Assembly (NCBI GenBank): GCA_020630065.1
Contig: JAHDCC010000019.1
Span: 7,139-71,138 of the forward strand
From: Acidimicrobiales bacterium
Lineage (GTDB): Bacteria; Actinomycetota; Acidimicrobiia; Acidimicrobiales; SZUA-35
Length of the DNA stretch: 64,000 bases
Direction of reading: 5' to 3'
Of the stretch, positions 9,049 to 52,894 are shown piece by piece (positions within the stretch are counted from its first letter, which is position 1; each line of letters begins with the position of its first letter). A program made the position numbers and the translations under genes. The notes below the pieces were generated by a model that searched no databases, had not been told where the DNA came from, and saw only the letters and a program-made list of their open reading frames with translations.

Positions 9049-9106
9049 AAACCGCCAGACGCTGCCCGCAGCCAGCCCACCCGGCGGCAACCGCGTCGCG
9101 TTCAAC

Positions 9107-9160
9107 ATCAATGCCGTGTTCGATACCAATGCCGTGTTCAATATCAATGATGTGTAGAGG
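9107..9160. repeat. Three imperfect 18-bp tandem direct repeats in an intergenic region
   Basis: ATCAATGCCGTGTTCGAT / ACCAATGCCGTGTTCAAT / ATCAATGATGTGTAGAGG, located about 50 bp upstream of the 9212 ORF. Confidence 0.6.
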
Positions 9161-9211
9161 TAGCGGTTTGTTACGTCAGCGGAATCTTGACCCCGGTAGG
9201 CTGAGATAGTC

Positions 9212-9493: not shown

Positions 9494-9559
9494 CAACATT
9501 TCTCTTTCGGTAGCCAGGGTGCAACCGAGTACCCGAGTCCTCGTTGTTAAGATAGCTAT

Positions 9560-14286: not shown

Positions 14287-14715
14287 ATGAGCAATGATCC
14301 TTCGGCTAACCCGACGCTTCCAACCGTGCTGTTCGTTTGCATCCACAATGCCGGTCGTTCGCAAATGGCGGCCGGATGGCTACAGCACTTGGGCGCTGGT
14401 AACATCACCGTGCTCTCTGGCGGAACGCAGCCAGCGGAACAGGTAAATGCGGCTGCGGTTGAAGCTATGGCCGAAGTCGGGATCGACATAGCTGCGAGCG
14501 TTCCCAAACTTTGGAGCGATACGACGGTACAACAAGCCGACGTCATCGTCACTATGGGTTGTGGCGATGTTTGCCCCGTCTACCCAGGGAAACGTTACGA
14601 GGATTGGGAACTCGAAGACCCGGCAGGCCAAGGAATCGAAATGGTCCGCGGGGTGCGAGACGACATCAAGTCGCGGGTTGAGGCACTGCTCACTAGTCTC
14701 AATATCGACGAGTAG
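14287..14715 (+). CDS. arsC: Arsenate reductase / low-molecular-weight phosphotyrosine phosphatase family (ArsC)
   Basis: P-loop VLFVCIHNAGRSQMAAG (CX5R-S) and a downstream MGCGDVCP cysteine pair. I preferred the ATG at 14287 over the ORF-track start at 14110. Confidence 0.75.
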   Translation: MSNDPSANPTLPTVLFVCIHNAGRSQMAAGWLQHLGAGNITVLSGGTQPAEQVNAAAVEAMAEVGIDIAASVPKLWSDTTVQQADVIVTMGCGDVCPVYPGKRYEDWELEDPAGQGIEMVRGVRDDIKSRVEALLTSLNIDE

Positions 14716-15493
14716 GCCTGACACCCAATCCGACCCAGTCCAAAATCTGGTTTCTGCCTACCAACTGAAAAGGCTGATAAAGCTGACGAATCACCGTCTC
14801 TTGACTATCGAGAAACCCGGCGAGCATAGCAATGCCATTTGGTTTAACTACCGCTAGCACATCGTTGTATAGCTCGTTGTGAACCGGCAGCAACACGTTA
14901 CTGACCACCACGTCAAATCGGCGTTCTGGATCCGAGGCGATATCTGCCAGAGGTGTCGTCGAACAAACTAGGTCGACGTCGTTCTTCAACGCGTTCGCCT
15001 GCGCGGTAGCTACCGCTTGTTCGTCGATGTCTATGGCTTCGACGGCGGCTCCCAGCACGGCGGCCGCTATCGCAAGCACGCCCGAACCTGTTCCGACATC
15101 TAGCACCCGCATCTTGTCATCGACCGTTTGGCCGATCATTTCGAGCATCAATTGAGTCGTCGGATGTTTCCCGTGTCCGAAAACCTGATTGGCTTCGATC
15201 TGGACCTCGGTTAAACCGTTTGGCGTTCGCACTGTAATCGATGTGGACGTGGTGAATGGTTCCCAGGTTGTTGGGTCTACTTCTTCGGTCGAAGTAATCC
15301 AAGAGGTTCCCGGTGTCTGTCTTCTGACTATGACGCCAGCCTGTTGGGCTTGAGCTTCGTTTTCGAACCCGGCGATGATCTCACCCGACGGCAGCTCTGA
15401 GGTCCCGGTTGTTCCGGCTTCCCGTAAATAGTGATGGATCAATTCGGTGGCGTCGTGTTTGACTGTTGACGTCAACCTAAGCACATAGGGCAT
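14699..15493 (-). CDS. prmA: SAM-dependent methyltransferase, ribosomal protein L11 methyltransferase (PrmA)-like
   Basis: SAM motif VLDVGTGSGVLAIAAA, an upstream FGHGKHPTT motif and a downstream SNVL motif, as in PrmA. Confidence 0.6.
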   Translation of the reverse strand: MPYVLRLTSTVKHDATELIHHYLREAGTTGTSELPSGEIIAGFENEAQAQQAGVIVRRQTPGTSWITSTEEVDPTTWEPFTTSTSITVRTPNGLTEVQIEANQVFGHGKHPTTQLMLEMIGQTVDDKMRVLDVGTGSGVLAIAAAVLGAAVEAIDIDEQAVATAQANALKNDVDLVCSTTPLADIASDPERRFDVVVSNVLLPVHNELYNDVLAVVKPNGIAMLAGFLDSQETVIRQLYQPFQLVGRNQILDWVGLGVRPTRRY

Positions 15494-21883: not shown

Positions 21884-22069
21884 AGTTTCTTTTCTCCTTC
21901 GTAAAGAAAACTCAGATATCGCCCAGTCGGCGGATACGTCGTCTGCATTAGGATACAAATTCGAAACATAGGCTCCAATGCTGGATTGGGTATCGCCGAC
22001 CCGCCTACTAGCCGAAGAACCGCCGCGTTGTCCTCATCGACCTGATTGCTCGGTATCGTGGACTCAGAA

Positions 22070-22170
22070 CCAAAGACGGGTGCCTGGCGTAACCAGGCTG
22101 AGATTGAGGTCTTATGCCTCGGGACCGTTCGAACCTGATACGGATAGTACCGTCGAAGGGACCAGCGGTC
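22070..22170 (+). promoter_or_regulatory. TPP (THI-box) riboswitch
   Basis: ACGGGTGCC...GGCTGAGA...ACCGTTCGAACCTGATACGGATAGTACCGTCGAAGGGA matches the conserved CUGAGA and ACCUGAUxxGGAUAAUxCCxGCGxAGGGA cores. It lies about 45 nt upstream of the thiE start. Confidence 0.85.
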
Positions 22171-22214
22171 GTGTCGTCACGCGTAGCCATGGAACTTTCA
22201 GCGGAGGAGACACG

Positions 22215-22886
22215 ATGACGTCATTTCAACCGCCTGCGGACTCTAGGCAAGCGGCCGCACCCAGATTGTATGTGGTTACCCCTGATCGTGGCGTCGACGA
22301 CTTCTTTGAGTCACTATCCACTATTGTGTCCACCGTCGATGTCATCGTACAAGTTCGCCGAAAATCGGGTTCAGAAAAAGATATTGTTGACGCCGCTCAC
22401 AAAATAACGAAGCTCTGCCACGAATTTAGTCGACTTTGTATTATCAACGATCGAGTAGATATCGCAAAAGCCGTAGGCGCTGACGGTGTTCATCTCGGCC
22501 AGACAGATCTGGCGGTACAGCAAGTCCGTGAAGACTTTGACGGCATCATCGGCAGCACCTGCCGGAATGCCACTCAGGCCAAAATCGCTGTGACCAGCGG
22601 AGCCGACTATTTGGGGGTCGGACCGACGTTTCAGTCCTCAACCAAACCAGGGCTACCTCAACCTCTTGGCGTCGACAGGGTCGCCCAGATCGCAGCCGGC
22701 GTCGACATTCCCGTCTACGCCATCGGTGGAATCACTTCAGATACCGCACCATCGTTAATCCAGCATGGGGTCTATGGAGTAGCCGTCGTAGCTGCAGTGT
22801 TTAACCAGCCCGATTCAGCCCAACAACAAGCGCAACGGCTATCCGCTGTGTTGTCTGCTGAACCCTACAGGTCAGGTGCAGAATGA
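22215..22886 (+). CDS. thiE: Thiamine-phosphate synthase
   Basis: ATG at 22215 preceded by GGAGGAGA. Motifs LYVVTPD, INDRVDIAKAVGADGVHLGQ, GPTFQSSTK and AIGGI are typical of ThiE. The ORF-track 5' extension covers the riboswitch. Confidence 0.8.
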   Translation: MTSFQPPADSRQAAAPRLYVVTPDRGVDDFFESLSTIVSTVDVIVQVRRKSGSEKDIVDAAHKITKLCHEFSRLCIINDRVDIAKAVGADGVHLGQTDLAVQQVREDFDGIIGSTCRNATQAKIAVTSGADYLGVGPTFQSSTKPGLPQPLGVDRVAQIAAGVDIPVYAIGGITSDTAPSLIQHGVYGVAVVAAVFNQPDSAQQQAQRLSAVLSAEPYRSGAE

Positions 22887-24009
22887 AAATTATTGTTGTT
22901 GGCGCCGGTGCCGCTGGACTAGCAGCGGCGTTCACGACCTCATCGGCAGGCCATGAAGTCCACGTTTTTGATCCGACCCCCGACAAAGCAGCCGCCTTTG
23001 TCGCCGCTGGCCGGCTGGCTCCAGTCGTCGAGGTAGAGTTTGGCGAAACTGCCATGATCACCTTATGTCTCGCCGCCAACAAACGATGGGACTCGTGGTC
23101 CGAGCAACTCCAACCATTTGCCCCGAACGGCGATTGGTATCAGCGTTCGGCGATGATCGTCGCCGCTAGAGACAACGACGATATCGCTTCTATCCGACGG
23201 CTGGCCGACTACCAGAGTGATCTAGGTTTACAGGTCGAGGCGCTCAACGCCCGCTCGATACGAAAACTCGAACCTGCTTTGTCCCCGAATGTCGTCGGCG
23301 GCTTGCTGGTTGAGCAAGACCATATGGTCAATAACAGAATCTTGCTCTCGGCGCTACGTGATGCGTGTCGACACTACGGCGCCACCTTCGTTGCCGAACG
23401 AGTGCATGGTGCCGGACCTCGCAACGTTGAAACGGACAACGGTTCGTTTTCAGCTGACGCCGTCATTTTGGCGGCCGGCGCTTGGATGTCTCAAATCGTT
23501 CTCGAACCGGGTCTCAAGCCGATAGCCGTACATCCGGTAAAAGGGCAAATCCTTCGCCTGGAGGGTTCGCCTACATCCATATTTCCCACTCACCCCATAG
23601 ACGGTCTCGATGTGTATTTAGTACCTAGAACCTCGGGAGAGCTGGTAGTTGGCGCATCGGTTGAAGATCTAGGGTTCGATGACACGATCACGGCAGGCGC
23701 CGTCTACGAACTACTAAAACGAGGACGAGAACTCGTCCCCGGGATCGACGAAATGAAGGTCGCGGAGACTTCTGTCGGTTTCAGACCGGCGACACTAGAT
23801 CACACACCCGTTATCGGGGCAATTGGCCCGGACGGACCGTTCGTGGCCGCTGGACTATATCGAAATGGTATTCTCCTCGCCCCAACGATCGGGGACGAAG
23901 TACTACATTGGGTCCAAGGCAGTCCCGTTAGCAAGTGGGTAGAACCGTTCACCCCACACCAAAACTCGTCGACTACAGACGCAAACCCTACTACGACACA
24001 GCAGGTCCA

Positions 24010-24013
<4 letters not shown>
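22883..24013 (+). CDS. thiO: Glycine oxidase (FAD-dependent), thiazole biosynthesis
   Basis: N-terminal dinucleotide fold IIVVGAGAAGLAAA, a DAO-family length, and a position between thiE and thiS. ATGA overlaps at both ends. Confidence 0.8.
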
Positions 24014-25016
<1,003 letters not shown>

Positions 25017-25042
25017 CTTCGTTTGATTCGAGACTTCGATTC

Positions 25043-25639
25043 GTGTTGTTGACCGATGCGTCTCAAACACGTCGTCCGCTCGTCGATGTTGTTAGCGAAG
25101 CTGTGTCTGCTGGAGTAACGACAGTTGTTGTGCGGGAAAAACATTTGCCAGAACAACATCGATCAAGCCTACTCAGCCAGATCTCCGACGTCGCTACACC
25201 AGCTGGATGCTTAGTTATAGCGGCTTCGCGATCTTCGGTCCCGGTCGATGGCCTCCACTTAGCGGCCGACGAGAAAACGCCGATCGATAGGCCAACTATT
25301 GTTGGACGATCGTGCCATAGTTTCGAAGAAGTTCAAGCGGCGGAGCGACAGGGATGCGACTATGTGACCTTGTCACCAATTTTCTTGACCCAGTCAAAGC
25401 CAGGTTATGGCCCGGCGTTGGGCACAGATTTTCTTCACCAAGTCGCACGCTCCGTGTCGATCCCCATCGTTGCGTTGGGTGGCGTAGACAGCACGAACGC
25501 TCGAAGTTGTATAACGGCCGGGGCCAGTGGCGTGGCCGTGATGGGAACTGTAATGCGAAGCAGCTCCGTCGATCGAACGGTGCGTTTATTAGGCCAAGAA
25601 CTAGCAGAATCGTCGATGTATCCTGACAGACATGACTAG
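25043..25639 (+). CDS. Second ThiE/TenI-family protein (thiamine-phosphate synthase paralog or thiazole tautomerase)
   Basis: GTG start. The LLTD...VVVREK...GRSCHS...DYVTLSPIF...ALGGV pattern fits the ThiE/TenI TIM-barrel family. It is the second copy in the same operon. Confidence 0.65.
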   Translation: MLLTDASQTRRPLVDVVSEAVSAGVTTVVVREKHLPEQHRSSLLSQISDVATPAGCLVIAASRSSVPVDGLHLAADEKTPIDRPTIVGRSCHSFEEVQAAERQGCDYVTLSPIFLTQSKPGYGPALGTDFLHQVARSVSIPIVALGGVDSTNARSCITAGASGVAVMGTVMRSSSVDRTVRLLGQELAESSMYPDRHD

Positions 25640-26498
25640 CAGATCGACGCCGCCTCGCCAGATCGTGTTCGAACCGTCTTCGTGTTCGGTCAGCGACACT
25701 CCCCCTACCGTGTTAACAATCGCTGGGTCTGATTCGGGTGGGGGCGCAGGCATACAGGCTGACATCAAGACCTTTGCTGCGTTGCAGACGGTGGGGACGA
25801 GTGCGGTTACTGCGTTGACGGCTCAAAACACCGTGGGTGTTTCCGCCGTTCACGTTGCACCACCGGAACTAGTCGAGCGCCAAATTCGGGTAGTCCTAGA
25901 CGATTTAGCCCCCCGGTCAGTTAAGACCGGCATGTTGGCGACTTCAGAAATCATTGAACTGGTAGCAGCGTTCGCTCAAGAAGGATTGTTACCTAATCTA
26001 GTAGTTGATCCAGTGATGATAGCGACGTCCGGAGACCGGCTCCTAACCGAAAAAGCCGAACGATTTTATGCAGAACAGCTTTTCCCCCATGCCGCCGTGA
26101 TCACCCCAAACGCCGTCGAAGCAGGACATTTGTGCGGGCGTACCCTTCGCTCGATCGGCGACTTACATGCAGCGGCTAAACAACTTGGCGCTTCAGGCGC
26201 TGACTATGTCGTCATAAAAGGAGGCCATATCGACGGCAGTCAGTCCGTCGACGTGGTTTGGGATGGGGTCGAAAGCCTCGAGTTGATTAGCGCGCGTTTC
26301 GACACGGTGAACACCCATGGAACCGGATGCAGTTTCGCTGCTGCTATCGCTGCTGAGCTAGCTAAGGGCTCACCGAAGCTAGACGCGATCTTAACGGCTA
26401 AGCGCTACATAGGTGACGCTATCTTTGGGGCAAAGGACTGGAAGGTCGGCCAAGGCCATGGCCCGGTTGACCATTCCATTCAAATCCGATGTGTCTAG
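25632..26498 (+). CDS. thiD: Hydroxymethylpyrimidine / phosphomethylpyrimidine kinase
   Basis: VLTIAGSDSGGGAGIQADIKTF, VKTGML and GTGCSFAAAIAA motifs. The start overlaps the upstream stop. Confidence 0.9.
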   Translation: MTSRSTPPRQIVFEPSSCSVSDTPPTVLTIAGSDSGGGAGIQADIKTFAALQTVGTSAVTALTAQNTVGVSAVHVAPPELVERQIRVVLDDLAPRSVKTGMLATSEIIELVAAFAQEGLLPNLVVDPVMIATSGDRLLTEKAERFYAEQLFPHAAVITPNAVEAGHLCGRTLRSIGDLHAAAKQLGASGADYVVIKGGHIDGSQSVDVVWDGVESLELISARFDTVNTHGTGCSFAAAIAAELAKGSPKLDAILTAKRYIGDAIFGAKDWKVGQGHGPVDHSIQIRCV

Positions 26499-35109: not shown

Positions 35110-36531
35110 TCAAAGTGGTCCATTGTCATGTTGACGCCGACGTAAGGTCTCTCGTTTACTCGACAACATGGCAAATGCGGCTATAAGCTCTTTTCTCGTA
35201 TCGGCAGGATCGATCACAGATGTAATAGCCTGTCGATCGGCAGCCGGATACGGCGTCAAAAGCGTCGCCTCGTACTCTTTGACCAGCTCTTGTTGTTCCT
35301 CTGCAGACGCCTTGCGGTGCAAGATGCTGACAGCACCTTTGGCTCCCATAACGGCGACCTCGGCGGATGGCCATGCGAACATGACGTCGTTACCCATCTC
35401 GGTCGAATCCATCACAATATACGCCCCGCCGTATGACTTTCTGAGGATGAGGCCAACGCGAGGAACCGTGGCACGAGCGTACGCAAAAGCTAGCTGAGCG
35501 CCGTGGCGGATCATCCCTCGCCATTCGAGGTCTTTACCAGGCAAGAACCCGGAAGTGTCGACCAGTGTTAAAAGAGGAACGTTGAACGCATCACACATCG
35601 CGACGAACCGGGCTCCCTTTTGTGATGCTGGAATATCGATACTTCCAGCCAGAGCCTGCGTCTGGTTTCCGATTACTCCAATCGGAGTGCCCCCAACCGA
35701 GGAAAACCCGATCACCATATTGGGAGCCCAACTAGCCTTAAGCTCCAAAAATTCGCCGTCATCGGCTAACGACTCGATAACATCACGCACGTCATAGGAG
35801 CCCATAGCCGTAGTGGGCATGAGCTCCCCGGCCTCCGGGGTCAGGCGATCAAAAGGGTCGTTGGTAGATCGTCCTGGCACACACGAATCGACATGCGGAG
35901 GAAGGAACGACAGAACGTCAGCTGCAAACTCGTAGGCAGACTCAACCGAGTCTACGGTTGAAGAGGCAAGACCAGTCGTGCGGGCGTGCACACCTGCACC
36001 TCCCAGATTCGCCCCGGTGACCGGCTCGCCTGTATAGGCTTCAACCGACTTTGGGCCCGTCACAAAGGCGTAGGTATCTTCAACAAAAACACAGACATCG
36101 GCTAAACCAAGCAAAAGCGCTGGACCGGCAACCATCGGGCCGTTGACGATAAACACGGTTGGGATTACCCCCGACACCGACGTTAGTTCTTTAGCGACTC
36201 TGGCCCAGCTATCAAGCGGAGCGAGACCGTCATCGACCGAGACGGACGAAGTGGTTAGCTCGGCCACAAACGGGACCCGTAAGGCGGCGGCGCGTTGGAT
36301 GGCAGACACGAAACGGTCGCCGTGGGATCGGGAAAGAACAAACTTTTCGCCGACGGATTCAAAGACCAACGAAATGACGGTCAGTCCATCGAGTTCTCGT
36401 TGTGCCACGTTTACCCGTGTTTGCGTTTCCGCAGTCAGGTTTGTTGGGTTAACAGGGTCTCTGCCAGCCGGATCTTTCGACACAATGTCGTCAGAAAGCT
36501 CAGCAACTAGGGGCGAGGTATTGGTTGACAT
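35110..36531 (-). CDS. Acyl-CoA carboxylase carboxyltransferase (beta) subunit, AccD/PccB family
   Basis: Two crotonase-like carboxyltransferase halves. Typical C-terminal half motifs: FVAMCDAFNVPLLTLVDTSGFLPG and YGGAYIVM. The ATG at 36531 has a GGAG RBS. Confidence 0.75.
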   Translation of the reverse strand: MSTNTSPLVAELSDDIVSKDPAGRDPVNPTNLTAETQTRVNVAQRELDGLTVISLVFESVGEKFVLSRSHGDRFVSAIQRAAALRVPFVAELTTSSVSVDDGLAPLDSWARVAKELTSVSGVIPTVFIVNGPMVAGPALLLGLADVCVFVEDTYAFVTGPKSVEAYTGEPVTGANLGGAGVHARTTGLASSTVDSVESAYEFAADVLSFLPPHVDSCVPGRSTNDPFDRLTPEAGELMPTTAMGSYDVRDVIESLADDGEFLELKASWAPNMVIGFSSVGGTPIGVIGNQTQALAGSIDIPASQKGARFVAMCDAFNVPLLTLVDTSGFLPGKDLEWRGMIRHGAQLAFAYARATVPRVGLILRKSYGGAYIVMDSTEMGNDVMFAWPSAEVAVMGAKGAVSILHRKASAEEQQELVKEYEATLLTPYPAADRQAITSVIDPADTRKELIAAFAMLSSKRETLRRRQHDNGPL

Positions 36532-36634
36532 TGATGAACTCCACTCGTGCACACTTGCGCCTAAGTCTATCAACGATGGGCTACGGCAACTCGAACAGCC
36601 CATTTCGAGCGAACCGGCAGAACAGGCCGATCAA

Positions 36635-37552
36635 TCAAACCAAGATGCTGTAGAGACCAGACACATTCGGTGCCTGAGCGGCAATAATCGCCCGGATGAT
36701 TTCAATAGTTCGTTGGGCGGCAACCGACGGCATCCCCCGACGACGGGTAACTAAACCAACGGTGCGCCTAGCAAGACCCTCGACTTCAATTGGGGTCCAA
36801 GGACCACCGACCCAACCAGGCGCGGCAGTCGCCGGAACTATAGCGACACCAAAACCCTGAAACGCTAACGTCGCTAGGAGGCGAAGGCCATCGACTTCGA
36901 GCTGCGGTTTAAGTCGCAAATTCTTCTCGGCAAAAGTCTGTTCAATCTCTTTACGGAACGCTGAGGCCTCGACGGGAAGCAATAACTTGTGTTGTGCAAG
37001 ATCCTCAAGTTCGACGGGTCTACCTAGTGTGGCCAGTGGATGGTCTTTAGGTCCGACAAGCACATGGTCTTCCGTGAAGAGCGGAGACGAACTGATCTCT
37101 GGTTCGTCAACCGGCAGGCCAACAAGGCCAACATCGAGCTCACCATCAAGAATTCGGGTAGTCAACGAGGTAGTGGTGCCATCGGCGATGACCAGACGGA
37201 TCTCGGGTGCCGCCTTTGTCACCTCATCCACCAGAATCGGGGTAAACCATCGTGCAGTTGTCCCGATCACGCCAATACGGACCGTACCTCGCAACGAACC
37301 ACGCAAAGCCGACACGTCGGCTTCAAGAGAAGCCAGCTCGGACTGGACCCGACGCACACGGGTGACGACGGCTTCACCTTCCTGCGTGGGGTTCCCGGTG
37401 GCTCTGTCGATCAGGGTGGCGTCGAGTTCTCGTTCGAGCCGAGCCACGTGAGTTGAGATATTTGACTGAACGGTGTGGGTCGCTTTTGCTGCCGCGGTAA
37501 ACCCACCGTGTTCGATCACTGCCAAGAATGCTTGAAGCTGCCGTAAGTCCAT
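36635..37552 (-). CDS. LysR-family transcriptional regulator
   Basis: N-terminal HTH MDLRQLQAFLAVIEHGGFTAAAKATHTVQSNISTHVARLE, followed by a substrate-binding domain of typical length. Confidence 0.85.
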   Translation of the reverse strand: MDLRQLQAFLAVIEHGGFTAAAKATHTVQSNISTHVARLERELDATLIDRATGNPTQEGEAVVTRVRRVQSELASLEADVSALRGSLRGTVRIGVIGTTARWFTPILVDEVTKAAPEIRLVIADGTTTSLTTRILDGELDVGLVGLPVDEPEISSSPLFTEDHVLVGPKDHPLATLGRPVELEDLAQHKLLLPVEASAFRKEIEQTFAEKNLRLKPQLEVDGLRLLATLAFQGFGVAIVPATAAPGWVGGPWTPIEVEGLARRTVGLVTRRRGMPSVAAQRTIEIIRAIIAAQAPNVSGLYSILV

Positions 37553-37744
37553 CGTTATTTATGATGGCACGGATCGCGCAAGAAATACATTCCTACGCAA
37601 ATTTGAGATGACGAAGATCACGCTTGGATGATACACGGATGCGGGTGGATGTATCTAGAATAGATATCAGACGAGGCAGAGACTTAATCCCTTTGATCGA
37701 TGCCCGTCCTTCATACCAAGTCGGTCCCCCTCCGATAGTTGGTT

Positions 37745-37790
37745 AAAGAAACAGAAACCGACCTCTGCCGGGGTCGGTTTCTTCGTTTTG
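37745..37790 (-). terminator. Rho-independent terminator after the desaturase gene
   Basis: Read on the minus strand: GAAACCGACC-CCGGCAGA-GGTCGGTTTC followed by TGTTTCTTT. It starts about 10 bp after the stop at 37801. Confidence 0.7.
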
Positions 37791-37800
37791 CTGAATGTGG

Positions 37801-38967
37801 TTACGAGCTGGGTTCGGAGCCGACGGCCGGAATCGTATAAACCCAGTCGTCTTGTTCTTTAGCAACGACTACACACGATGTCCCCGCCCGCCATAACGCG
37901 ACCGGGATAGGGGTCGGGTCAAACCGATAAAGATACGGGAACGCCTCACGTACCGCTTCAGTGGCTCGCACCGCCTGATAGTGAGGAATCGCCGAATTCA
38001 AGTGATGTACAACATGGGTTGACCCAATGTTGTGATGGAGAAAATTGAACAGTCGACCATATGGGCGATCGACCGAGCAGAACGCGCCTTTCACAAACGA
38101 CCACTCGTCGGCGTCGTAGTGTGGCACATCAGAATTTGTGTGCTGAAGCCAGGTGTAGGTAACCAGCCAAGCGTTGACGACCAAGTAAGGGCCGCCATAA
38201 AGCACAAGCACGGTCGAGATACTTCCGATGCTGGTCGCCCACCAACCCAAGAGAAGAAGCGTTACTACAACACCCACCGCCGACCATAAAACTTTCGGAG
38301 CTAGCCTTTTCGGAAACAGAGAGCTTTCGAATGGGGCCCATGGCCAAAAGTGGTTCGAAACACCTCGAGCCGGTGAACCTGTAGTGCCCGAAACAAGATA
38401 CAGGGGCCACCCAATGCCCAGACGAACCACAATCGAAAGCAAGCCGTACCCGGAGGCTCCAAGCCGTTCGTGAAGACGAATCGCCCGTTGACCTCGAGCT
38501 GTGCCAGCAACCTTTGGCACGTGGGTTTCGCCTTCGGTCAAATGATTGGTTTTGGCGTGGTGGACCGCATGACTTCGCTGCCACGAGAAGTACGGCACTA
38601 ACAACGCAGAATGCAGAACGAATCCGACTGCGTTCCCAAACTTTTTGTTATCGCTAAATGCTCCATGACCGCATTCGTGAGCGACAACCCAAACACCGGT
38701 CCCCGCGGTGCCACACGCGATCGCATACATCACCCATACCGGCGCCCAGACCCACGAGACAGGAACGTACAACCAGGCGAGAATTCCAATGAGAAGTGTG
38801 AGCACTACCGAGAAACCGCCGTAAGCACACGAAATCAGGTTCGAACGTCTAAAACACTCTGCTGGGATAGCCGCTCGAACCTCTTTGGTGGAGGGAATCG
38901 CATCGTCGGCGAGAACGGACACGAGGCTCGGTGAGGCTATAGAAAGCCGTGGAGGATTACGTTTCAT
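37801..38967 (-). CDS. Membrane fatty-acid desaturase (three His boxes)
   Basis: His boxes HECGH, HAVHH and HVVHH with four TM segments, as in the Delta12/omega-type and DesA-like desaturase family. Confidence 0.85.
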   Translation of the reverse strand: MKRNPPRLSIASPSLVSVLADDAIPSTKEVRAAIPAECFRRSNLISCAYGGFSVVLTLLIGILAWLYVPVSWVWAPVWVMYAIACGTAGTGVWVVAHECGHGAFSDNKKFGNAVGFVLHSALLVPYFSWQRSHAVHHAKTNHLTEGETHVPKVAGTARGQRAIRLHERLGASGYGLLSIVVRLGIGWPLYLVSGTTGSPARGVSNHFWPWAPFESSLFPKRLAPKVLWSAVGVVVTLLLLGWWATSIGSISTVLVLYGGPYLVVNAWLVTYTWLQHTNSDVPHYDADEWSFVKGAFCSVDRPYGRLFNFLHHNIGSTHVVHHLNSAIPHYQAVRATEAVREAFPYLYRFDPTPIPVALWRAGTSCVVVAKEQDDWVYTIPAVGSEPSS

Positions 38968-45447: not shown

Positions 45448-46887
45448 ATGCAGACTTTTCCCGAAACAGCGAACGAGTCCGGTACTCGCCTTTGGCGTAC
45501 CCTTGGTGTCGCTGGGCTGGCTGCATTATTGCTCGGCACAGTCCCCAGTTCAACAGTCAACCTCGCAAACGATTCACGACCTTCGGGATGTAACACGTCT
45601 ACCACTGTCGGTCTTACCCAAACGGCTGACCCGTTCGACCTGGCAGTGCAAGTCTTCCCATGCGCCGAACATGTGGTAGTCGTTCCCGAAACGGCAAGCC
45701 ACGAACGGCTTCAAACAGCAGTCGTGCTGGCGATTTCGCATGAAGCCCCGCTGTTCATTTCGTCGCCCAAAACTCGACCAGATATCTTAGACGTGATCGA
45801 CAGGCTCAACGCCAAGGTCGTGGCCGTTCCGGACGATAACTCCGAACAGGGATCTGAGAAAACCATCAACGCTGCGATTCGTACACCGGCCGCCGACAAA
45901 ACCTACGTCTTGCCGACCAGGCCAACAGCAGATCAGATGGCGCTCATACCCTCGCTGGTCGCTTCCGGCATCAACGTAGTATTAGCAAAGCCTGGTGACG
46001 AAGACCGAGCCAACGAAATCGTGAAATCTCCGACAGTAGTCTTTTCGCCTGATTTCAACCCGACCGACCGGTGGCTTCTCCAACGTGACCAGATATTACC
46101 TGGCGGCGGTTTCCGCCTTTTCCCTGATCGTCGAATCGTGGCCCTCTACGGCCATCCGGGCGCTCCCGTGCTGGGTTTGCTCGGTGAGCAAGGACCACAA
46201 GCAGCTAGCGACCGTGTCTCGAAGATGCTACCTAGCTACGCCGAAGCTGGGGTTCCCACCATTGGTGGCTTTGAGATCATCTCCACCATCGCGACCGCCA
46301 AACCAGGCGATGATGGTAACTACTCCAAGAAGATCGACGTTGAACAGCTACGTCCTTGGATCGAGACCGCAGTCAGCCACGATCTCTACGTCATTCTCGA
46401 CCTCCAACCGGGACGAACCGACTTTTTGACTCAAGCAAAGTTGTATGAGGAATTTCTCAAACTCCCAAATGTTGGGCTTGCCCTCGACCCTGAATGGCGT
46501 CTACTCCCCGATCAGGTCCACCTACGACAGATCGGGGGTGTGGATGCTGCCGAAGTCAACCAAGTTGTGGACTATTTGGCCCAACTGGTCAGAGACAACA
46601 ATCTGCCCCAGAAAGCACTCGTTCTTCATCAATTTCAAACCTCAATGCTGCGAGACCGCTCAACGATCGAAACACCGCCTGAATTAGCGGTTGTCGTCCA
46701 CGTTGATGGCCAAGGCCCTCTGGGTTCGAAATTCGGGACGTGGGATAGTTTGCGGTCCGACCCGATCGGATCTAGTCAACAACTGTGGTGGGGCTGGAAG
46801 AACTTCATAGATGAGGACCTGCCAACGGCGACACCCCAGCAGGTCAACGACGTTACCCCTCTTCCAGTTGTTGTCACGTATCAATAA
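45448..46887 (+). CDS. Secreted protein with N-terminal CWB2-like cell-wall-binding repeats and a C-terminal putative glycoside-hydrolase-like TIM-barrel domain
   Basis: Signal/TM segment GVAGLAALLLGTV. There are two segments resembling cell-wall-binding repeat 2 (VVVVPETAS...AISHEAPLFIS; YVLPT...VASGINVVLA). The C-terminal part (LYVILDLQPG...GLALDPEW) resembles GHL-type domains. The functional call is tentative. Confidence 0.4.
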   Translation: MQTFPETANESGTRLWRTLGVAGLAALLLGTVPSSTVNLANDSRPSGCNTSTTVGLTQTADPFDLAVQVFPCAEHVVVVPETASHERLQTAVVLAISHEAPLFISSPKTRPDILDVIDRLNAKVVAVPDDNSEQGSEKTINAAIRTPAADKTYVLPTRPTADQMALIPSLVASGINVVLAKPGDEDRANEIVKSPTVVFSPDFNPTDRWLLQRDQILPGGGFRLFPDRRIVALYGHPGAPVLGLLGEQGPQAASDRVSKMLPSYAEAGVPTIGGFEIISTIATAKPGDDGNYSKKIDVEQLRPWIETAVSHDLYVILDLQPGRTDFLTQAKLYEEFLKLPNVGLALDPEWRLLPDQVHLRQIGGVDAAEVNQVVDYLAQLVRDNNLPQKALVLHQFQTSMLRDRSTIETPPELAVVVHVDGQGPLGSKFGTWDSLRSDPIGSSQQLWWGWKNFIDEDLPTATPQQVNDVTPLPVVVTYQ

Positions 46888-46889
46888 TC

Positions 46890-47990
46890 TCAGAGGCCGT
46901 CTAGAAGCCGATCGATCAGCAATACATCGACCTGGTCGACCGTTTCAAACTGCCAGCATGGATTGTTGTCTTTGGTGACAAGCGCCGATCGGACTCCGGC
47001 AGAAAAGTCCGACTCTCGTACGTATCGCTTAGACAATACTTCATCTGTTTTCAGCACCTCTACCGGCGTCCGCCCACGACTGAGGGCGAAGTACCGGTCA
47101 GCTACCACCAGGCTGGTTGGCGACACTTGTTTGAACGCTCTAGCTGAAGCGCTGAAGAAGTCGAACGTGTTGGCGAGTTCGTTGAGAGTTTCACCGAATT
47201 CGACGATGTCACCGGCTTGGCCTAGTCGTTCAAACTGGCCAAGATGCCCCTCAATATCCGACCCGTGGTCGCCGATAGAAAGCTCGGCCAGTACATCGTT
47301 GACTATTTCATGGTTATGGGCGGTGTCAGAAGTCCATGGTAGAACAGCTAACTGGTCCCAAAGAGTCAAATGATCGGTGTGGCTAACAAAGGCGGTAGCC
47401 AACCCAAACCTCATAGCGTCTGTTGAATCGATTACCATGCCGGTTACAGCGAATGTCCGCCCAACTCCTTCAGGCAGCTGAGATAGAAAGCTGCTTGAGC
47501 CAACATCGGGGTAAAACCCGATGTTTACTTCGGGCATCGCTATTGCCATGTTTGGGGTCACGATCCGATGCGATCCCGCCATTAATAGACCAAGTCCCCC
47601 ACCCATACAAACTCCGTGAGTAGACACGATGACGGGTTTTGTCCAGCGATGAAGCCGACTGTCAAGAAAGTACTCTTCGTCGAAACATTGGTCGACTTCG
47701 GCCTCATCAGAAGCCAGTAGCGCGTTACGAAGCGATACCACATCTCCTCCGGCGCAGAAACCCCGCTCGCCGACACCGGCGATGCCGAGACCGACGATGC
47801 CATCGTCGTGTTCCCAGCTGTCGAGTTGTCGATTCATCGCCGCGAACATTTGAGTATTCATCGCGTTGAGTTGGGCCGGACGGTTTAGCAAAATTAGGGC
47901 TAGTCGAAGATCTGCGCCAACTTCGCGGGTTCCGAAAATAACATTTGCGGTCGCCTCGGTTTCAGCGCCCGACGTCTCAGATGTGGTCAT
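46890..47990 (-). CDS. Crotonase-fold protein, 3-hydroxyisobutyryl-CoA hydrolase-like (ECH_2). Last gene of the biotin operon.
   Basis: FCAGGDV, GVCMGGGLGL and MPEVNIGFYPDVGSS motifs resemble the HIBCH-type oxyanion hole and catalytic region. The ATG overlaps the stop of the upstream di-iron gene (ATGA). Confidence 0.75.
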   Translation of the reverse strand: MTTSETSGAETEATANVIFGTREVGADLRLALILLNRPAQLNAMNTQMFAAMNRQLDSWEHDDGIVGLGIAGVGERGFCAGGDVVSLRNALLASDEAEVDQCFDEEYFLDSRLHRWTKPVIVSTHGVCMGGGLGLLMAGSHRIVTPNMAIAMPEVNIGFYPDVGSSSFLSQLPEGVGRTFAVTGMVIDSTDAMRFGLATAFVSHTDHLTLWDQLAVLPWTSDTAHNHEIVNDVLAELSIGDHGSDIEGHLGQFERLGQAGDIVEFGETLNELANTFDFFSASARAFKQVSPTSLVVADRYFALSRGRTPVEVLKTDEVLSKRYVRESDFSAGVRSALVTKDNNPCWQFETVDQVDVLLIDRLLDGL

Positions 47991-48655
47991 GTTCTACTGT
48001 CTTGAGTCTCTGCTTGGATCGCTGTCAACCAATTTGAGAAAATCTCTTGCTCAATCTCGCAGACCTTTTCAAGCCACCACTGAGGGTCTTCGAATTGTTG
48101 AGCGACAGTGTCAGCCATCTCGGCAAGATGGTTTTCTTCGTCTACCAAGATGGTGCGAACCGAAACCTCGCTCTTGTGGTCTTTCAAGAGTCGCTCGTAG
48201 TTGCCGTACAATAAATCGGCTTTCACCTCAATGGCATAGGTGACAAGAACGTAGCATGCCGAGCGGAGGTCCTGTCCGACTAACTCAAGTTCGGTCTTTA
48301 CCAGTCTGGACACCGCCGTATCCAACTTATGTAGATATTGTCGGGTAGCCGTCGGTGCCACCAGGTACGCGGGTTCGTAAGTGGGGCAAGCCACAGACGG
48401 CAGCTTTCGGATCTGTCTTTTAAGGTACCAGGCGTGCCGAGACTCTTCGACGGTATGCCGCAGTATCTGTTCGGTAACCAACTCGGGGTGTTGGGCCGCC
48501 GATATTTTTCTCGCACCAGAGTTCTCTAGAAACGAAAGCGAATTCAACCACCGACCATGAAGCGAGTCATCGGCAACGATAACGGAGATTAGTTCAACGA
48601 GTTGCCCCAGCTGATCTACTTCACTGTGGTTGACGTTTTCGTTTCTGGTGTTCAC
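47987..48655 (-). CDS. Ferritin-like di-iron carboxylate protein of unknown function, embedded in the biotin operon
   Basis: 222-aa protein. Candidate ligands are E44 (FLENSG), E71-x2-H74 (VEESRH), E143 (AIEVKA) and E173-x2-H176 (DEENH), at spacings of 27 and 30 residues. The GTG start overlaps the bioA stop (GTGA). Confidence 0.6.
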   Translation of the reverse strand: MNTRNENVNHSEVDQLGQLVELISVIVADDSLHGRWLNSLSFLENSGARKISAAQHPELVTEQILRHTVEESRHAWYLKRQIRKLPSVACPTYEPAYLVAPTATRQYLHKLDTAVSRLVKTELELVGQDLRSACYVLVTYAIEVKADLLYGNYERLLKDHKSEVSVRTILVDEENHLAEMADTVAQQFEDPQWWLEKVCEIEQEIFSNWLTAIQAETQDSRT

Positions 48656-49959
48656 CGTGCCGCCTCATCTAGTACTCGTTTGATTGCATTGACTAAAAGA
48701 TCGATGTCATCGTTACTTATCACGTAGGGAGGCATGATATAAATCAACCTTCCGAAAGGCCGGATCCAAACCCCGGAATCGACGAATATTCGCTGGGCGT
48801 CTTCGAGGTCCACCGCCTCGTTCGTTTCCACAACTCCTACCGCTCCAAGAACCCGAACATCAAAAACTTCTGGGTGGTTGACCAGGCCCGAAAGCCCGTC
48901 GTGGAGCTTCTGTTCGATACGTTTCACCTCGGTTGGCCAGTCGCTGGCCACCAAAAGGTCGATACTCGCCGATGCGACAGCACACGCTAACGGGTTCGCC
49001 ATAAACGTCGGTCCGTGCATAAACGTTGGGTTCGACCCAGCGTCGATGACGTCTACTACCTTGTCGGTGGTCAGTGTCGCCGCCAGCGTCATCATTCCCC
49101 CAGTGAGTGCTTTACCGACACACATAATGTCGGGGGTTACCTCTGCATGTTCACAGGCGAACAACTTCCCCGTTCGCCCGAACCCGGTCGCTATTTCATC
49201 TACGATCAGCAAAAGGCCTTCTCGGTCGCAGATCGAACGGATTCCACGGAGATACTCGGGATGGTAGAACCGCATCCCGCCGGTTCCCTGCAAGATCGGC
49301 TCACAGATGACGCCCGCTAATTGGCTACGATGCTCAGCGACGTTTTGTTCAATGTCGTCCAACGCTGAGACGTCCCAGGGCTCGTGGTATTCGACGGATG
49401 GACGTTCAACAAATACCTGTTTTTTTAACACCGACGAAAACAGATGATGCATGCCGTTGTCTGGGTCGCTAACCGACATGCAAGCAAACGGGTCTCCGTG
49501 ATAACCACCCCGAGGTGTTAGAAATAGCGAGCGTTCGGTTTCGCCTTTGGCATGCCAGAATTGAATCGCCATTTTTAATGCGACTTCAACCGAAACCGAA
49601 CCAGAATCGGCAAAAAACACGTATTGGAGATCGTCGGGGGTCAGTTCAACTAGCTGCGCTCCGAGCTTACTTGCTGGTTCGTGGGCGAACCCGCCAAACA
49701 TGACGTGCGACATTTTGCTGAGCTGTTGAGCGGCGGCTGCGTTTAGCTGCGGATGGTTGTAGCCATGTATGGCCGTCCACCATGATGACATTCCGTCGAC
49801 GAGCTCGGTTTCTTGCTCATCGGCCAAGGTGATGCGGACACCGTCAGCACGCTTGACCGGGTAGGTCGGGAGCGCATCTCGCATCGACGTGTAGGGATGC
49901 CAAAGATGGTTACGATCGAAGTTGTGCCAGTCTTGGGTGTTTTCGAAGTTTATGGGCAT
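48652..49959 (-). CDS. bioA: Adenosylmethionine-8-amino-7-oxononanoate aminotransferase
   Basis: NHLWHPYTSM, VDGMSSWWTAIHGYNHPQLN and DEIATGFGRTGKLFA motifs. I preferred the ATG at 49959. The ORF-track TTG is at 49971. It overlaps the bioD 3' end by about 50 nt. Confidence 0.9.
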   Translation of the reverse strand: MPINFENTQDWHNFDRNHLWHPYTSMRDALPTYPVKRADGVRITLADEQETELVDGMSSWWTAIHGYNHPQLNAAAAQQLSKMSHVMFGGFAHEPASKLGAQLVELTPDDLQYVFFADSGSVSVEVALKMAIQFWHAKGETERSLFLTPRGGYHGDPFACMSVSDPDNGMHHLFSSVLKKQVFVERPSVEYHEPWDVSALDDIEQNVAEHRSQLAGVICEPILQGTGGMRFYHPEYLRGIRSICDREGLLLIVDEIATGFGRTGKLFACEHAEVTPDIMCVGKALTGGMMTLAATLTTDKVVDVIDAGSNPTFMHGPTFMANPLACAVASASIDLLVASDWPTEVKRIEQKLHDGLSGLVNHPEVFDVRVLGAVGVVETNEAVDLEDAQRIFVDSGVWIRPFGRLIYIMPPYVISNDDIDLLVNAIKRVLDEAAR

Positions 49960-50533
49960 GTGTTTGTACAAAGTCGCACGTTACAGACGACACCTGTTCG
50001 ATGTCGGCCAATGGTTCTATTCCGCTGTATTCCAGTATGACAGTCCTGCTATCTCTATTGGCTTTACCGTTGAAAACGACACCAATTGATTCGATACCAC
50101 GGCTCTTGAGTAGTTCGATAGACAGCAACGTGTGGTTAATACTGCCCAGGTAATAGTTGGCTACCAAGACCACGGGAAATCCTAGACGCGCAACGAGATC
50201 TACTGTCAGTGTCTGCTGGTTGATCGGGACCATCAAACCACCTGCGAGTTCGACCAGTAGATTGTCGTCTGTCGGCGGCGTCAACGCTTCCAGCGTGATA
50301 CCGACGGCGTCTCGTTCCGCCGCCGCGTGTGGCGACATCGCTTCGGTGAGGCGATACCGTTCGTCATGAACGGTGCAGTCTGATGTTAGAGACGATACGA
50401 CGCTGGTGTCTGTTTGATGTAAGTCTCCGGCCTGTATCGGTTTCCAATAGTCCAAACCAAAAGCTTCACAAAACATGGCTGAGACAACGGTCTTGCCTAC
50501 GTCGGTGCCGATACCGGCAATGATCACGTTCAT
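49910..50533 (-). CDS. bioD: Dethiobiotin synthetase
   Basis: MNVIIAGIGTDVGKTVVS P-loop, and ELAGGLMVP. The ATG at 50533 overlaps the bioF stop. The ORF-track 5' extension (to 50698) lies inside bioF and is rejected. Confidence 0.85.
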   Translation of the reverse strand: MNVIIAGIGTDVGKTVVSAMFCEAFGLDYWKPIQAGDLHQTDTSVVSSLTSDCTVHDERYRLTEAMSPHAAAERDAVGITLEALTPPTDDNLLVELAGGLMVPINQQTLTVDLVARLGFPVVLVANYYLGSINHTLLSIELLKSRGIESIGVVFNGKANRDSRTVILEYSGIEPLADIEQVSSVTCDFVQTHAHKLRKHPRLAQLRS

Positions 50534-51651
50534 GGGTTTGTTCTCACTAGTGTTTCGATGAGGAGATCGATTTCTTGAGTCGTGTTGTACGAGTGGATAC
50601 AGATTCGAATTCGTTCGCTCCCGGCAGCAACCGTCGGTGGCAGAATCGCTTTGACCGTAATGCCCACACCGGACAGCGTATTTTCGATGTCGCAGCAACG
50701 TTCGGTCTCACCGACGACGAGGCCTTGTATCGGCGAACTACTCGGCAGCAGTCGGCCAGAACCCGCCGATAGCTGGGCGTTTGCGGTCTGACGGAAGTAC
50801 TCGATATTGCGGCGCAGACCTTGCCGTTGGGAGTCGGCTTCAACCATTCGTTCATGTTGATGAGCGATTGTCTGTACTGAAGAGACCGGTGGGGCTGTCG
50901 AGTAGATAAATGGGCGGCAGAAATTTATCAGATAGTTTCGCAGCCAGGAGCCTCCGGCAACGACCGCACCGTGGTAGCCCACAGCTTTGCCGAAGGTGTA
51001 CACACAAGCGGCCACCCGGCTTTGGAGGTTCAAACTAGCTACGAGACCTTCGCCCCGGTCCCCTATGACGCCGAGGCTGTGGGCTTCGTCGACGATTACT
51101 GCTGCGTCGAAACGTTCACACAGGTTGACAATCTCAACCAGCGGCGCGTGGTCGCCGTCCATCGAATAGGTGCCTTCGACGACAACAATGACGTTCCCGT
51201 CGGGGCGTTTAGCGCGAACTCGTTGCAGTTTTTCGGACAAGTTATCGAGGTTGTTGTGTCGAAAGTGGAAACGACGCGCCGTGCTCAGTCTGGCTCCATC
51301 GATCAGACTGGCGTGAGCTAACTCGTCAAGAATTAACGAGTCTGTTCGCCCGGCGATACAAGCGAGCAAGCCGAGGTTGGCGTCGTATCCAGACCCGAAG
51401 AGAAGCCCTGCTTCAAACCCATGAAATCGGGCGATCTGGTTCTCCACCTGTTCGGCTATCGCCGAGTTTCCTGAAAGAAGTCTAGAACCCGTCGACCCCG
51501 CTGGACGCACCGCAACGGTTTGAGCGGAAAGCCCAAGATAGTTGTTTGACCAGAAATCGATCTGAGTATCCGTTGACGGCAACGTTCGAAAGTTCGCCGC
51601 CCGCTTTCGCTTGTTTAGTTTCTGTTGGCTGGCGGACTCTAAACTTTTCAC
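50530..51651 (-). CDS. bioF: 8-amino-7-oxononanoate synthase
   Basis: PLP-dependent alpha-oxoamine synthase. Motifs SGYDANLG, DEAHSLGV and TFGKAVG (PLP lysine). Confidence 0.9.
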   Translation of the reverse strand: MKSLESASQQKLNKRKRAANFRTLPSTDTQIDFWSNNYLGLSAQTVAVRPAGSTGSRLLSGNSAIAEQVENQIARFHGFEAGLLFGSGYDANLGLLACIAGRTDSLILDELAHASLIDGARLSTARRFHFRHNNLDNLSEKLQRVRAKRPDGNVIVVVEGTYSMDGDHAPLVEIVNLCERFDAAVIVDEAHSLGVIGDRGEGLVASLNLQSRVAACVYTFGKAVGYHGAVVAGGSWLRNYLINFCRPFIYSTAPPVSSVQTIAHQHERMVEADSQRQGLRRNIEYFRQTANAQLSAGSGRLLPSSSPIQGLVVGETERCCDIENTLSGVGITVKAILPPTVAAGSERIRICIHSYNTTQEIDLLIETLVRTNP

Positions 51652-51656
51652 CGCCG

Positions 51657-52625
51657 CTACGAAATTTGGACCGAAACCGGCTGAGGTTCCTTCGCAGTGA
51701 GCCCTAAGAGTTCGAATAGTTGAGCGTCGTCGGCCACACTCGGATTCGGTGTCGTCAAAAGCTTTTCACCAGCGAAGATCGAATTGGCACCAGCCAGAAA
51801 ACACAGAGCTTGTTCGGAAGCAGAAAGTTCTGTCCGCCCGGCTGAAAGACGCACCACCGTCGTGGGCATCAAGATTCTGGCCGTCGCCACCATACGCAAC
51901 ATCTCCCATGCGGTGACACGTTTCTGGTCGGCAAGCGGAGTTCCTTCAACTGGAACTAGCGCATTGATGGGAACGGATTCAGGTGGGGTTGATAGGTTAG
52001 CGAGGGTTGTTAGCAGTCCAATTCGGTCGTCATCGGTTTCTCCCATCCCGATAATTCCACCGCTGCATACCGTCATACCCGCATTTCGAACATTGTCGAG
52101 CGTATCTAAACGGTCGTCGTAGTCACGGGTCGTGATGATCTGATCATAGTATTCGGCCGAAGTATCTAGATTGTGGTTGTACGCATACAGACCTGCGTCA
52201 CGCAGTTTCTGGGCTTGGGAATCCGTCAACATTCCCAGTGTGCAACAGACTTCTAAGCCTAAACCATTGACCGCTGTCACCATTTCCAGCACACGGTCGA
52301 AGTCTTTGTTGTCTTTGACTTCTCGCCAGGCGGCACCCATACACAGCCTTGAAGAACCCGAATCTTTAGCCTGCTGAGCCAGCTCTAGTACCTGCTCAAC
52401 CGGCATTAGTTTATGGACATCTACGTCGGTCTGGTATCGAGCGGCTTGAGGACAATAGGCGCAGTCTTCAGGGCAGGCGCCGGTCTTGATCGACACAAGA
52501 GTTGAGACCTGAACCTCGTTGTGAACGTTCGAATTCCGATGGACTGTTGCCGCTTCGAAGACCAACTCGAGCAACGGACGAGTGTAAATCTCTCGGACAG
52601 CTTCCAACGAAATCTTCTGATCCAT
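51657..52625 (-). CDS. bioB: Biotin synthase (radical SAM)
   Basis: [10 protein letters not shown] radical-SAM cluster motif, YNHNLDTS, and an overall 322-aa BioB pattern. Confidence 0.95.
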
Positions 52626-52687: not shown

Positions 52688-52894
52688 TTATAGAGCCTGT
52701 ACTAGCGCTGAGATAGCGAGGACCGTGACACTCAGCAGCAGAGTCGCGATACCCCAAATAACAAGACCAAAAAGTAGCCGCACCCGACTTTTGCGGGTTT
52801 CGAAAACCTGTGCCTCTACCGGGTTAACTTTTTGACCCAGAATCTCGTCGATACGAAACTGTCCAGTTTCTAGCGGACCCTTGTTCACGTTCAT
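52688..52894 (-). CDS. Small tail-anchored membrane protein translationally coupled to the GT2 synthase
   Basis: 68-aa protein with a single C-terminal TM segment (LLFGLVIWGIATLLLSVTVLAISALV). Its ATG overlaps the stop of the upstream synthase by 4 nt. Confidence 0.5.
   Translation of the reverse strand: MNVNKGPLETGQFRIDEILGQKVNPVEAQVFETRKSRVRLLFGLVIWGIATLLLSVTVLAISALVQAL

Follow-up and report, generated by a model that had tools for sequence, protein, structure and literature searches.

A probable BioE-type biotin operon with a translationally coupled hydrolase gene at its 3' end in an Acidimicrobiia-like actinobacterium

The source of the pimelate moiety in a biotin operon that carries the ring-assembly genes together with two non-canonical ones is the question raised by a locus in an Acidimicrobiales bacterium (GCA_020630065.1). 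The DNA analyzed here, referred to as the window, is a stretch of 64,000 nucleotides (nt) of contig JAHDCC010000019.1, and the locus occupies positions 46890-52625 of its minus strand. An initial annotation described there a run of bioB, bioF, bioD and bioA followed by genes for a di-iron protein and a crotonase-fold protein; it raised the possibility that the first of these two is an oxidase that supplies the pimelate moiety by cutting or processing an acyl thioester oxidatively, much as the P450 BioI does, and that the pair forms a so far uncharacterised route. All six open reading frames (ORFs) are present at these coordinates and in this order, and the mechanistic part of the proposal, a guess made from raw sequence, agrees with a pathway that was validated experimentally only in December 2025. 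The pimelate route itself is thus not new, for it has already been characterised as BioE in two papers of that month. What is new is the host, which is Acidimicrobiia-like and falls outside the published distribution of BioE, and a clade-specific, coupled hydrolase gene of unproven relevance.

BioE was defined in PNAS, from Elizabethkingia and Chryseobacterium, as a ferritin-like di-iron oxygenase that splits C14, C16 and C18 acyl-coenzyme A (acyl-CoA) or acyl-acyl carrier protein (acyl-ACP) oxidatively between C7 and C8, yielding pimeloyl-CoA/ACP together with the free Cn-7 acid; it requires O2 and a reductant, and it substitutes for BioC/BioH in E. coli (PMC12704756). The BioE of Chlamydia psittaci (CpBioE) was added in Adv Sci (PMC12915131). 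Activity has been shown only for this enzyme and for those of Elizabethkingia meningoseptica (EmBioE) and Chryseobacterium indologenes (CiBioE), and EmBioE and CpBioE each rescue E. coli mutants of the bioC/bioH pathway on their own, both yielding pimeloyl-CoA/ACP in vitro without a partner (PMC12704756; PMC12915131). The families in which bioE has been reported are the Weeksellaceae, Flavobacteriaceae, Chitinophagaceae, Sphingobacteriaceae, Flectobacillaceae, Burkholderiaceae and Chlamydiaceae (PMC12915131), and neither paper refers to Actinobacteria, to a crotonase or to an enoyl-CoA hydratase (PMC12704756; PMC12915131).

The 222-aa di-iron protein of the window matches no Pfam or NCBIfam model, and a sequence search of the PDB returned as its sole match a de novo designed helix bundle (E = 0.12). 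A search of 5.8 billion proteins identified 33 homologues of about 200-228 aa, with sources that include Flavipsychrobacter (Chitinophagaceae), the Parachlamydiaceae and Candidatus Chlamydia sanziniae (40% identity, 82% coverage, E = 4e-38), and a profile run against 1.84 billion cluster representatives delimits a family of 564 clusters at E <= 1e-10. The homologue of Empedobacter falsenii (Weeksellaceae) is 47% identical over 203 aa; the published numbering of EmBioE, that of the ligands included, fits this protein exactly, and the Ca. C. sanziniae homologue at +2. Six residues of the window protein (E44, E71, H74, E143, E173 and H176) are invariant in the 29 homologues aligned and constitute an E/ExxH/E/ExxH di-iron carboxylate set. 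The six EmBioE ligands (E26/E53/H56/E125/E155/H158) fall on these same residues at a constant offset of +18, and those of CpBioE (E41/E68/H71/E140/E170/H173) at a constant offset of +3. The agreement extends beyond the metal site to channel and contact residues implicated by mutagenesis, since the four carrier and substrate contacts of EmBioE (F24, R31, K32 and R87) are all identical in the window protein, making 10/10 for this enzyme, as are 10 of the 11 acyl-channel residues of CpBioE (W33, L37, L40, I48, L105, V135, I139, L146, Y147, Y150 and L205), making 16/17 with the ligands. In all, 26 of the 27 published residues are kept, which is what brings the proposed BioI-like oxidase into line with BioE, and the lone mismatch (L205 of CpBioE, N208 here) lies in a C-terminal stretch with an indel. 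On these grounds we consider it quite probable that the 222-aa protein belongs to the BioE family and that the locus is a BioE-type operon with one extra 3' gene, coding for an add-on hydrolase. The lack of a Pfam or NCBIfam model for BioE means that automated annotation makes such operons look as if they had no pimelate arm. Among the cluster representatives, one protein of 1911 aa (P0298) combines a BioE domain at residues 17-189 with an HHH motif and a Peptidase_C25 domain, an architecture that most likely reflects run-through in the gene calling and not a real fusion.

By analogy with the characterised enzymes, the protein would hold two irons between E44, E71-x-x-H74, E143 and E173-x-x-H176 and, with O2 and an external reductant, would cleave acyl-CoA and/or acyl-ACP of about C14-C18 at C7-C8, the expected products being pimeloyl-CoA/ACP and a free Cn-7 fatty acid. 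Condensation of this pimeloyl thioester with alanine would fall to BioF and completion of the rings to BioA, BioD and BioB, so that BioE would stand in for BioC/BioH, BioI/BioW or BioZ.

The initial annotation also held that no known pimelate route is visible in the window. This stands for the ORFs scanned, among which neither a BioC-type methyltransferase nor a BioH-type hydrolase, BioW, a P450 (BioI) or a FabH-like BioZ was found, the only methyltransferase being PrmA-like (14699-15493). The scan covered 46 of the 62 ORFs of at least 90 aa by Pfam and several more through the families of their orthologues in the related locus L081, with about seven ORFs of 91-164 aa outside it. The check was confined to the window, and missing pimelate genes in a single 64-kb window say little about the whole genome. 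No BioL-type GntR/MocR regulator was found among the scanned ORFs either, the regulators seen being of the LysR, MarR and Crp types. BioL is likewise absent in Chlamydia (PMC12915131), and it is not adjacent to bioE in Empedobacter, where the upstream neighbor that was considered as a candidate MocR regulator is a FAD (flavin adenine dinucleotide) monooxygenase-like protein; hence, BioL is not a defining feature of BioE itself.

If the di-iron family serves biotin synthesis, it should recur beside bio genes in other genomes. One genome per GTDB species was scanned, giving 585 loci with relatives of the window BioE, and the best 80 were compared by tblastn with the six window proteins and by clustering of all their neighbors. 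These 80 loci are all from Bacteroidota, with BioEs at most 52% identical to that of the window, whose own lineage the scan did not return. Bio genes lie within the fetched flanks of bioE at 45 of them and bioA directly upstream of it at 42, and bio genes alone recur among the clustered neighbors, with no recurrent thioesterase, ferredoxin or regulator. The expected recurrence is thus borne out, with a strong linkage to bio genes for the di-iron family though not for the crotonase. About 12 of the loci share the B-F-D-A-E order of the window (e.g. L065 and L061), the bioD/bioA overlap being kept in L065. The BioBs of the Bacteroidota bioE loci are 62-72% identical to that of the window. The gene order and the overlap common to several Bacteroidota suggest that their operons and this one share an origin as whole units, possibly through horizontal transfer. 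The E. falsenii locus presents instead a bioE-F-D / B-A layout, as in E. meningoseptica. A contig labelled 'uncultured Bifidobacteriaceae bacterium' (L071; CAYMRD010000017.1) harbors a Bacteroidota-like bioBFDA-bioE cluster with BioB 66% and BioE 48% identical to those of the window, and its bin label is probably wrong.

The junctions of the operon (Table 1) are as initially described, each having been read back from the sequence. The bioB stop (TAG) is separated from the GTG start of bioF at 51651 by five nt (CGGCG). The score of BioF against TIGR00858 (324 bits) is under the equivalog cutoff of 426, and its assignment is backed by the operon position. An ATGA overlap joins bioF to bioD, whose start was set at the ATG at 50533, giving 207 aa versus 262 aa for the longest ORF; the 207-aa call is also made in the related loci L081 and L083. 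A GTGA overlap joins bioA to bioE, an ATGA overlap joins bioE to the crotonase gene, and the operon ends with the crotonase stop 2 nt from that of a convergent gene. The overlap between bioD and bioA amounts to 50 nt if bioA starts at the ATG at 49959, and this start was chosen because it is needed for the N-terminal 'FDRNHLWHPYTSM' motif matched by BioA models. The alternative start, M30, from which the gene callers of L081 and L082 begin bioA (8772-10004 and 7287-8519, respectively), comes only after the conserved WHPYT motif. They thereby leave a 25-nt gap to bioD and a protein of only 410 aa that starts at the Met within the 'WHPYTSM' motif, truncating it. An overlapping start of the same type as ours is called in the sister locus L083, and the 50-nt overlap is the more likely of the two structures. 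In a further related locus (L084, 3182-4423), tblastn recovers a BioA 72% identical over 416 aa between bioD and bioE, where the deposited call is a 170-aa minus-strand ORF; this may reflect a miscall, a frameshift or an in-frame stop.

Table 1. Genes of the biotin operon, in order of transcription (window coordinates).
Gene	Predicted product	Position	Strand	Size and supporting evidence
bioB	biotin synthase	51657..52625	-	322 aa; Radical_SAM and BATS domains; TIGR00433 398 bits (cutoff 225)
bioF	8-amino-7-oxononanoate synthase	50530..51651	-	373 aa, GTG start; Aminotran_1_2; best NCBIfam model TIGR00858 (bioF)
bioD	dethiobiotin synthase	49910..50533	-	207 aa; AAA_26; TIGR00347 above cutoff
bioA	adenosylmethionine-8-amino-7-oxononanoate transaminase	48652..49959	-	435 aa; PRK07986 652 bits (cutoff 625)
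bioE	putative ferritin-like di-iron acyl-CoA/ACP oxygenase	47987..48655	-	222 aa, GTG start; residue-level homology
	ECH_2 crotonase-fold protein, 3-hydroxyisobutyryl-CoA-hydrolase type	46890..47990	-	366 aa; PF16113, PRK05617

A consensus scan of the operon for internal promoters and terminators gave results at or below shuffle expectation, providing no evidence for a signal that would separate bioE or the crotonase gene from bioBFDA. Alignment of the region upstream of bioB in four clade members revealed no clear palindrome that could serve as an operator, the conserved element being a short 'GTTGATA..ATGA' near the start codon.

The crotonase-fold protein is where the operon departs from those described so far. 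It matches PF16113 (ECH_2) with 291 bits over residues 31-362 and passes the cutoff of PRK05617, the 3-hydroxyisobutyryl-CoA hydrolase (HIBCH) model, only marginally (280.6 bits versus 274), its score against the DspII equivalog being far under the cutoff of that model. In the PDB, it has full-length matches to a Shewanella protein (3ju1, 2e-56) and to human HIBCH (3bpt, 1e-44). E154 and D162 in 'AMPEVNIGFYPDVG' align with 'AMPETAIGLFPDVG' of 3bpt (the 'MPE...PDVG' motif) and, together with G81/G82 and G130-G132, are invariant across the clade and canonical HIBCH homologues. We take the Glu and Asp to be the equivalents of the catalytic E169 and D177 of human HIBCH, and the glycines, presumably, to form the oxyanion hole as they do there. 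The protein is hence predicted to be an HIBCH-type acyl-CoA hydrolase with its catalytic Glu and Asp intact.

Its distribution is narrow. Only three of the 5.8 billion proteins searched are more than 38% identical to it (99, 58 and 48%), and all three are encoded beside a bioE, following BioEs 97, 68 and 59% identical to that of the window by a 4-nt overlap, a 2-nt gap and an 8-nt overlap, respectively. A fourth case is provided by L089, where the BioE is 59% identical and the ORF downstream of bioE, overlapping it by 4 nt, is cut off after 32 codons by the end of the contig; the N-terminal sequence of this ORF ('VIFGERDAGDG..LGLIL') resembles that of the window crotonase ('VIFGTREVGAD..LALIL'). 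Relatives with BioEs 55, 52 and 50% identical have other genes downstream of bioE, no ECH_2 homologue lies within 8 kb of bioE at any of the 80 Bacteroidota loci, and no crotonase gene was found at L093, an unrelated locus with a bioBFDA-bioE operon. The nearest outgroup proteins are gammaproteobacterial HIBCHs, at most 38% identical. This pattern points to a derivative of HIBCH that was added to the operon in a single lineage and has since been kept coupled to bioE.

What such a hydrolase might do in a biotin operon is a matter of graded likelihood. Since it is absent from the Bacteroidota loci and from the nearest non-clade relatives, and since BioE alone is sufficient in E. coli, the crotonase would stand outside the core pimeloyl-forming chemistry. 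It may have been taken into the operon as an accessory enzyme that hydrolyses CoA thioesters for the BioE step, a reading to which we give about an even chance. In that role it could recover CoA tied up in hydroxy- or oxo-acyl-CoA intermediates that have stalled or left the pathway during a multi-step oxidation or, alternatively, it could limit pimeloyl-CoA. A more specific form of this idea, that the BioE route of this clade has gained a dedicated second enzyme, a fast-evolving HIBCH-derived hydrolase acting on the substrate, an intermediate or the product of BioE, is put forward only tentatively; such an enzyme might edit oxidised acyl-CoAs that have stalled, or might control or convert pimeloyl-CoA. 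Were it to hold, the fourth pimelate pathway would have a two-component variant in this operon, and the protein would be the first crotonase-fold enzyme assigned to biotin synthesis.

Several observations weigh against a BioE assisted by an auxiliary hydrolase, in one or the other of its halves. As regards the hydrolase, its conservation is confined to one syntenic lineage (the sister assemblies are syntenic with the window), so that inheritance could explain it without function; BioE works in E. coli with no crotonase (PMC12704756; PMC12915131); and one of the outgroup crotonases (P0053) is encoded in a classic valine-degradation cluster, together with mmsA, an acyl-CoA dehydrogenase, an enoyl-CoA hydratase (ECH) and 3-hydroxyisobutyrate dehydrogenase. 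As regards BioE, the residue mapping was made from the published numbering of EmBioE and CpBioE and through close relatives. The identity criterion given for the family (>40% identity and >85% coverage to EmBioE; PMC12915131) was likewise checked by proxies only, the Weeksellaceae homologue (47%) and the chlamydial one (40%, at 82% coverage). The AlphaFold2 model of the protein is an all-helical bundle with a predicted local distance difference test (pLDDT) score of 92.9, and Foldseek returned no PDB match for it at E <= 1e-3. The sensible matches, none of them significant by E-value, include 5ux1 and 8fhc, with aldehyde-deformylating oxygenase (ADO) activity (template modelling (TM) score about 0.5-0.57, probability 0.99), the ADO-type proteins and MiaE ranging from 0.5 to 0.58. 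The heme-oxygenase-like di-iron proteins AetD and UndA, as well as TenA, score similarly (TM about 0.5), and such similar weak scores mean that the fold could not tell ferritin-like from heme-oxygenase-like di-iron classes. The authors of BioE named the cyanobacterial ADO (cADO) as its nearest solved fold (PMC12704756), and the model is compatible with that comparison but is no proof of it.

The alternative that survives best is that the crotonase is an ordinary HIBCH of valine or 3-hydroxypropionate metabolism, carried as a passenger at the end of the bio operon, which we regard as possible though unlikely. It would account for the passing score against the HIBCH subfamily model, for the full-length likeness to the human enzyme including the catalytic Glu and Asp, for the genomic context of the outgroup just mentioned and for the lack of the gene in all other bioE lineages. 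However, no other valine-catabolism gene was found in the 64-kb window (mmsA, mmsB, acyl-CoA dehydrogenase and enoyl-CoA hydratase having been looked for), and the crotonase gene has kept its overlap with the bioE stop. Furthermore, a housekeeping enzyme would be expected to have orthologues at 50-70% identity, as does the cysteinyl-tRNA synthetase encoded on the same contig, which has more than 100 matches at 61-67%, the best named ones (62-67%) all from Acidimicrobiia, Acidimicrobiales or Actinomycetota metagenome-assembled genomes. It is on this one marker protein that the description of the host as Acidimicrobiia-like is based. For the crotonase, identity instead drops from 48% directly to 38%, and all the closer relatives are adjacent to bioE. 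The lack of close orthologues outside bio operons and of neighboring valine genes thus argues against a housekeeping HIBCH.

The opposite alternative, closer to the two-gene unit of the initial annotation, is a variant of the pathway in this clade that cannot do without either BioE or the crotonase. In one version, the product or an intermediate of BioE must be hydrolysed or otherwise processed by the crotonase before BioF can act; in another, the crotonase would free pimelate for a ligase encoded elsewhere. Such a pair would explain why translational coupling has been kept in four genomes while the proteins diverged to 59% (BioE) and 48-49% (crotonase) identity, why the crotonase clade is found solely beside bioE and why its catalytic residues are intact, and it would find a parallel in L093, where a hotdog-fold thioesterase gene lies divergently upstream of the operon. 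Against it, EmBioE and CpBioE complement E. coli and form pimeloyl-CoA/ACP with no second enzyme, no crotonase gene accompanies bioE at the Bacteroidota loci or in the closest relatives outside the clade, whose BioEs are 50-55% identical, no BioW-like ligase was found in the window, and the functional residues of BioE, unchanged at 26 of 27 positions, give no sign of an altered chemistry. We therefore judge an obligatory pair to be improbable, and the claim of a two-gene unit does not stand in that form. The weakest alternative, for which we see very little room, is that the 222-aa protein is a BioE-like paralogue (e.g. a fatty-acyl desaturase or hydroxylase, or an aldehyde-deformylating enzyme) with canonical pimelate genes elsewhere in the genome: the weak fold likeness mixed across several di-iron enzyme classes, the lack of a curated hidden Markov model for the family and the restriction of the pimelate-gene check to the window would allow it, but the functional residues of two characterised BioEs are kept, the gene is translationally coupled to bioA and its operon position is that of many Bacteroidota bioBFDA-bioE clusters.

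With respect to known systems, the window protein shares with the published BioEs (E. meningoseptica, C. indologenes and C. psittaci) a size of about 200-225 aa, the E/ExxH/E/ExxH ligands and the location of its gene within or beside bioFDAB. It differs from them in its Acidimicrobiia-like host, outside the families listed above, in the lack of a BioL in the window, as in Chlamydia, and in the translationally coupled HIBCH-type crotonase gene that follows bioE and goes unmentioned in either paper. The window protein would do the same overall job as BioI (CYP107H1) of Bacillus subtilis, an O2-dependent C7-C8 cleavage of long-chain acyl thioesters giving a pimeloyl thioester, but BioI is an unrelated haem P450, whereas BioE is a non-haem di-iron helical bundle; the authors of BioE draw this analogy as well (PMC12704756). 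The helical-bundle di-iron carboxylate scaffold may be shared with cADO and other ferritin-like di-iron oxygenases, which catalyze other reactions on other substrates and have no significant sequence or Foldseek E-value to the window protein. The crotonase, in turn, presents the full-length ECH_2 architecture, the Glu/Asp motif and the oxyanion-hole glycines of human (3bpt) and Shewanella (3ju1) HIBCH, but lacks the C-terminal 'PPW...HPLAD' tail of the gammaproteobacterial enzymes and is encoded in a biotin operon instead of a valine-catabolism cluster.

An actinobacterial BioE encoded in a Bacteroidota-like operon order bears on how this O2-dependent route has spread. The clade-restricted HIBCH-type hydrolase, for its part, offers a testable lead on thioester editing or flux control in the multi-step oxidation by BioE, a question raised by the finding that unbalanced BioE activity is harmful in Elizabethkingia (PMC12704756).

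The locus L093 (1786-3418 of a GCA_033852095.1 contig) merits a separate description. The hotdog-fold gene located divergently upstream of bioB in this bioBFDA-bioE cluster is of the 4HBT / acyl-ACP thioesterase-like type and is a second, unrelated thioesterase beside a BioE operon; a fatty-acid desaturase gene is also found divergently upstream of bioB.

Around the operon of the window, the convergent gene at 45448-46887 (+), whose stop lies 2 nt from that of the crotonase gene, codes for a 479-aa protein without a Pfam family; its position, along with that of a YkuD L,D-transpeptidase gene, is kept in L081-L083, only the YkuD gene being present in L084. On the other side, an ORF of 68 aa at 52688-52894 (-), with one predicted membrane helix and conserved in L081, L083 and L084, has an ATGA overlap with the stop of an upstream gene for a 685-aa deacetylase/glycosyltransferase. 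It was considered as a BsaP-like helper of BioB and rejected, being a single-pass membrane peptide that overlaps the glycosyltransferase stop and is separated from bioB by another gene in L083; it belongs with the glycosyltransferase and not with bioB. About 8-12 kb from the operon, the region 35110-38967 (-) encodes the carboxyltransferase subunit of an acyl-CoA carboxylase, which pairs with a biotin-dependent enzyme, as well as a LysR regulator and a membrane fatty-acid desaturase.

Elsewhere in the window, a thiamine pyrophosphate (TPP) riboswitch (RF00059, 65 bits) at 22066-22179 (+) precedes a thiamine cluster (genes at 21978-26498) that codes for a TMP-TENI protein, a ThiO-like FAD oxidase, a probable ThiS, ThiG, a second TMP-TENI protein and ThiD. 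The riboswitch falls within the longest ORF at 21978-22886, the Pfam match of which begins at residue 97, so the real start of this gene must be downstream. The window also encodes a Ser/Thr kinase and an FHA-ABC transporter, and a complete system I cytochrome c maturation cluster (CcmA/B/C-like, CcmE and CcmF) occupies 343-5476 (-), beside a sortase gene at 5540-6469.

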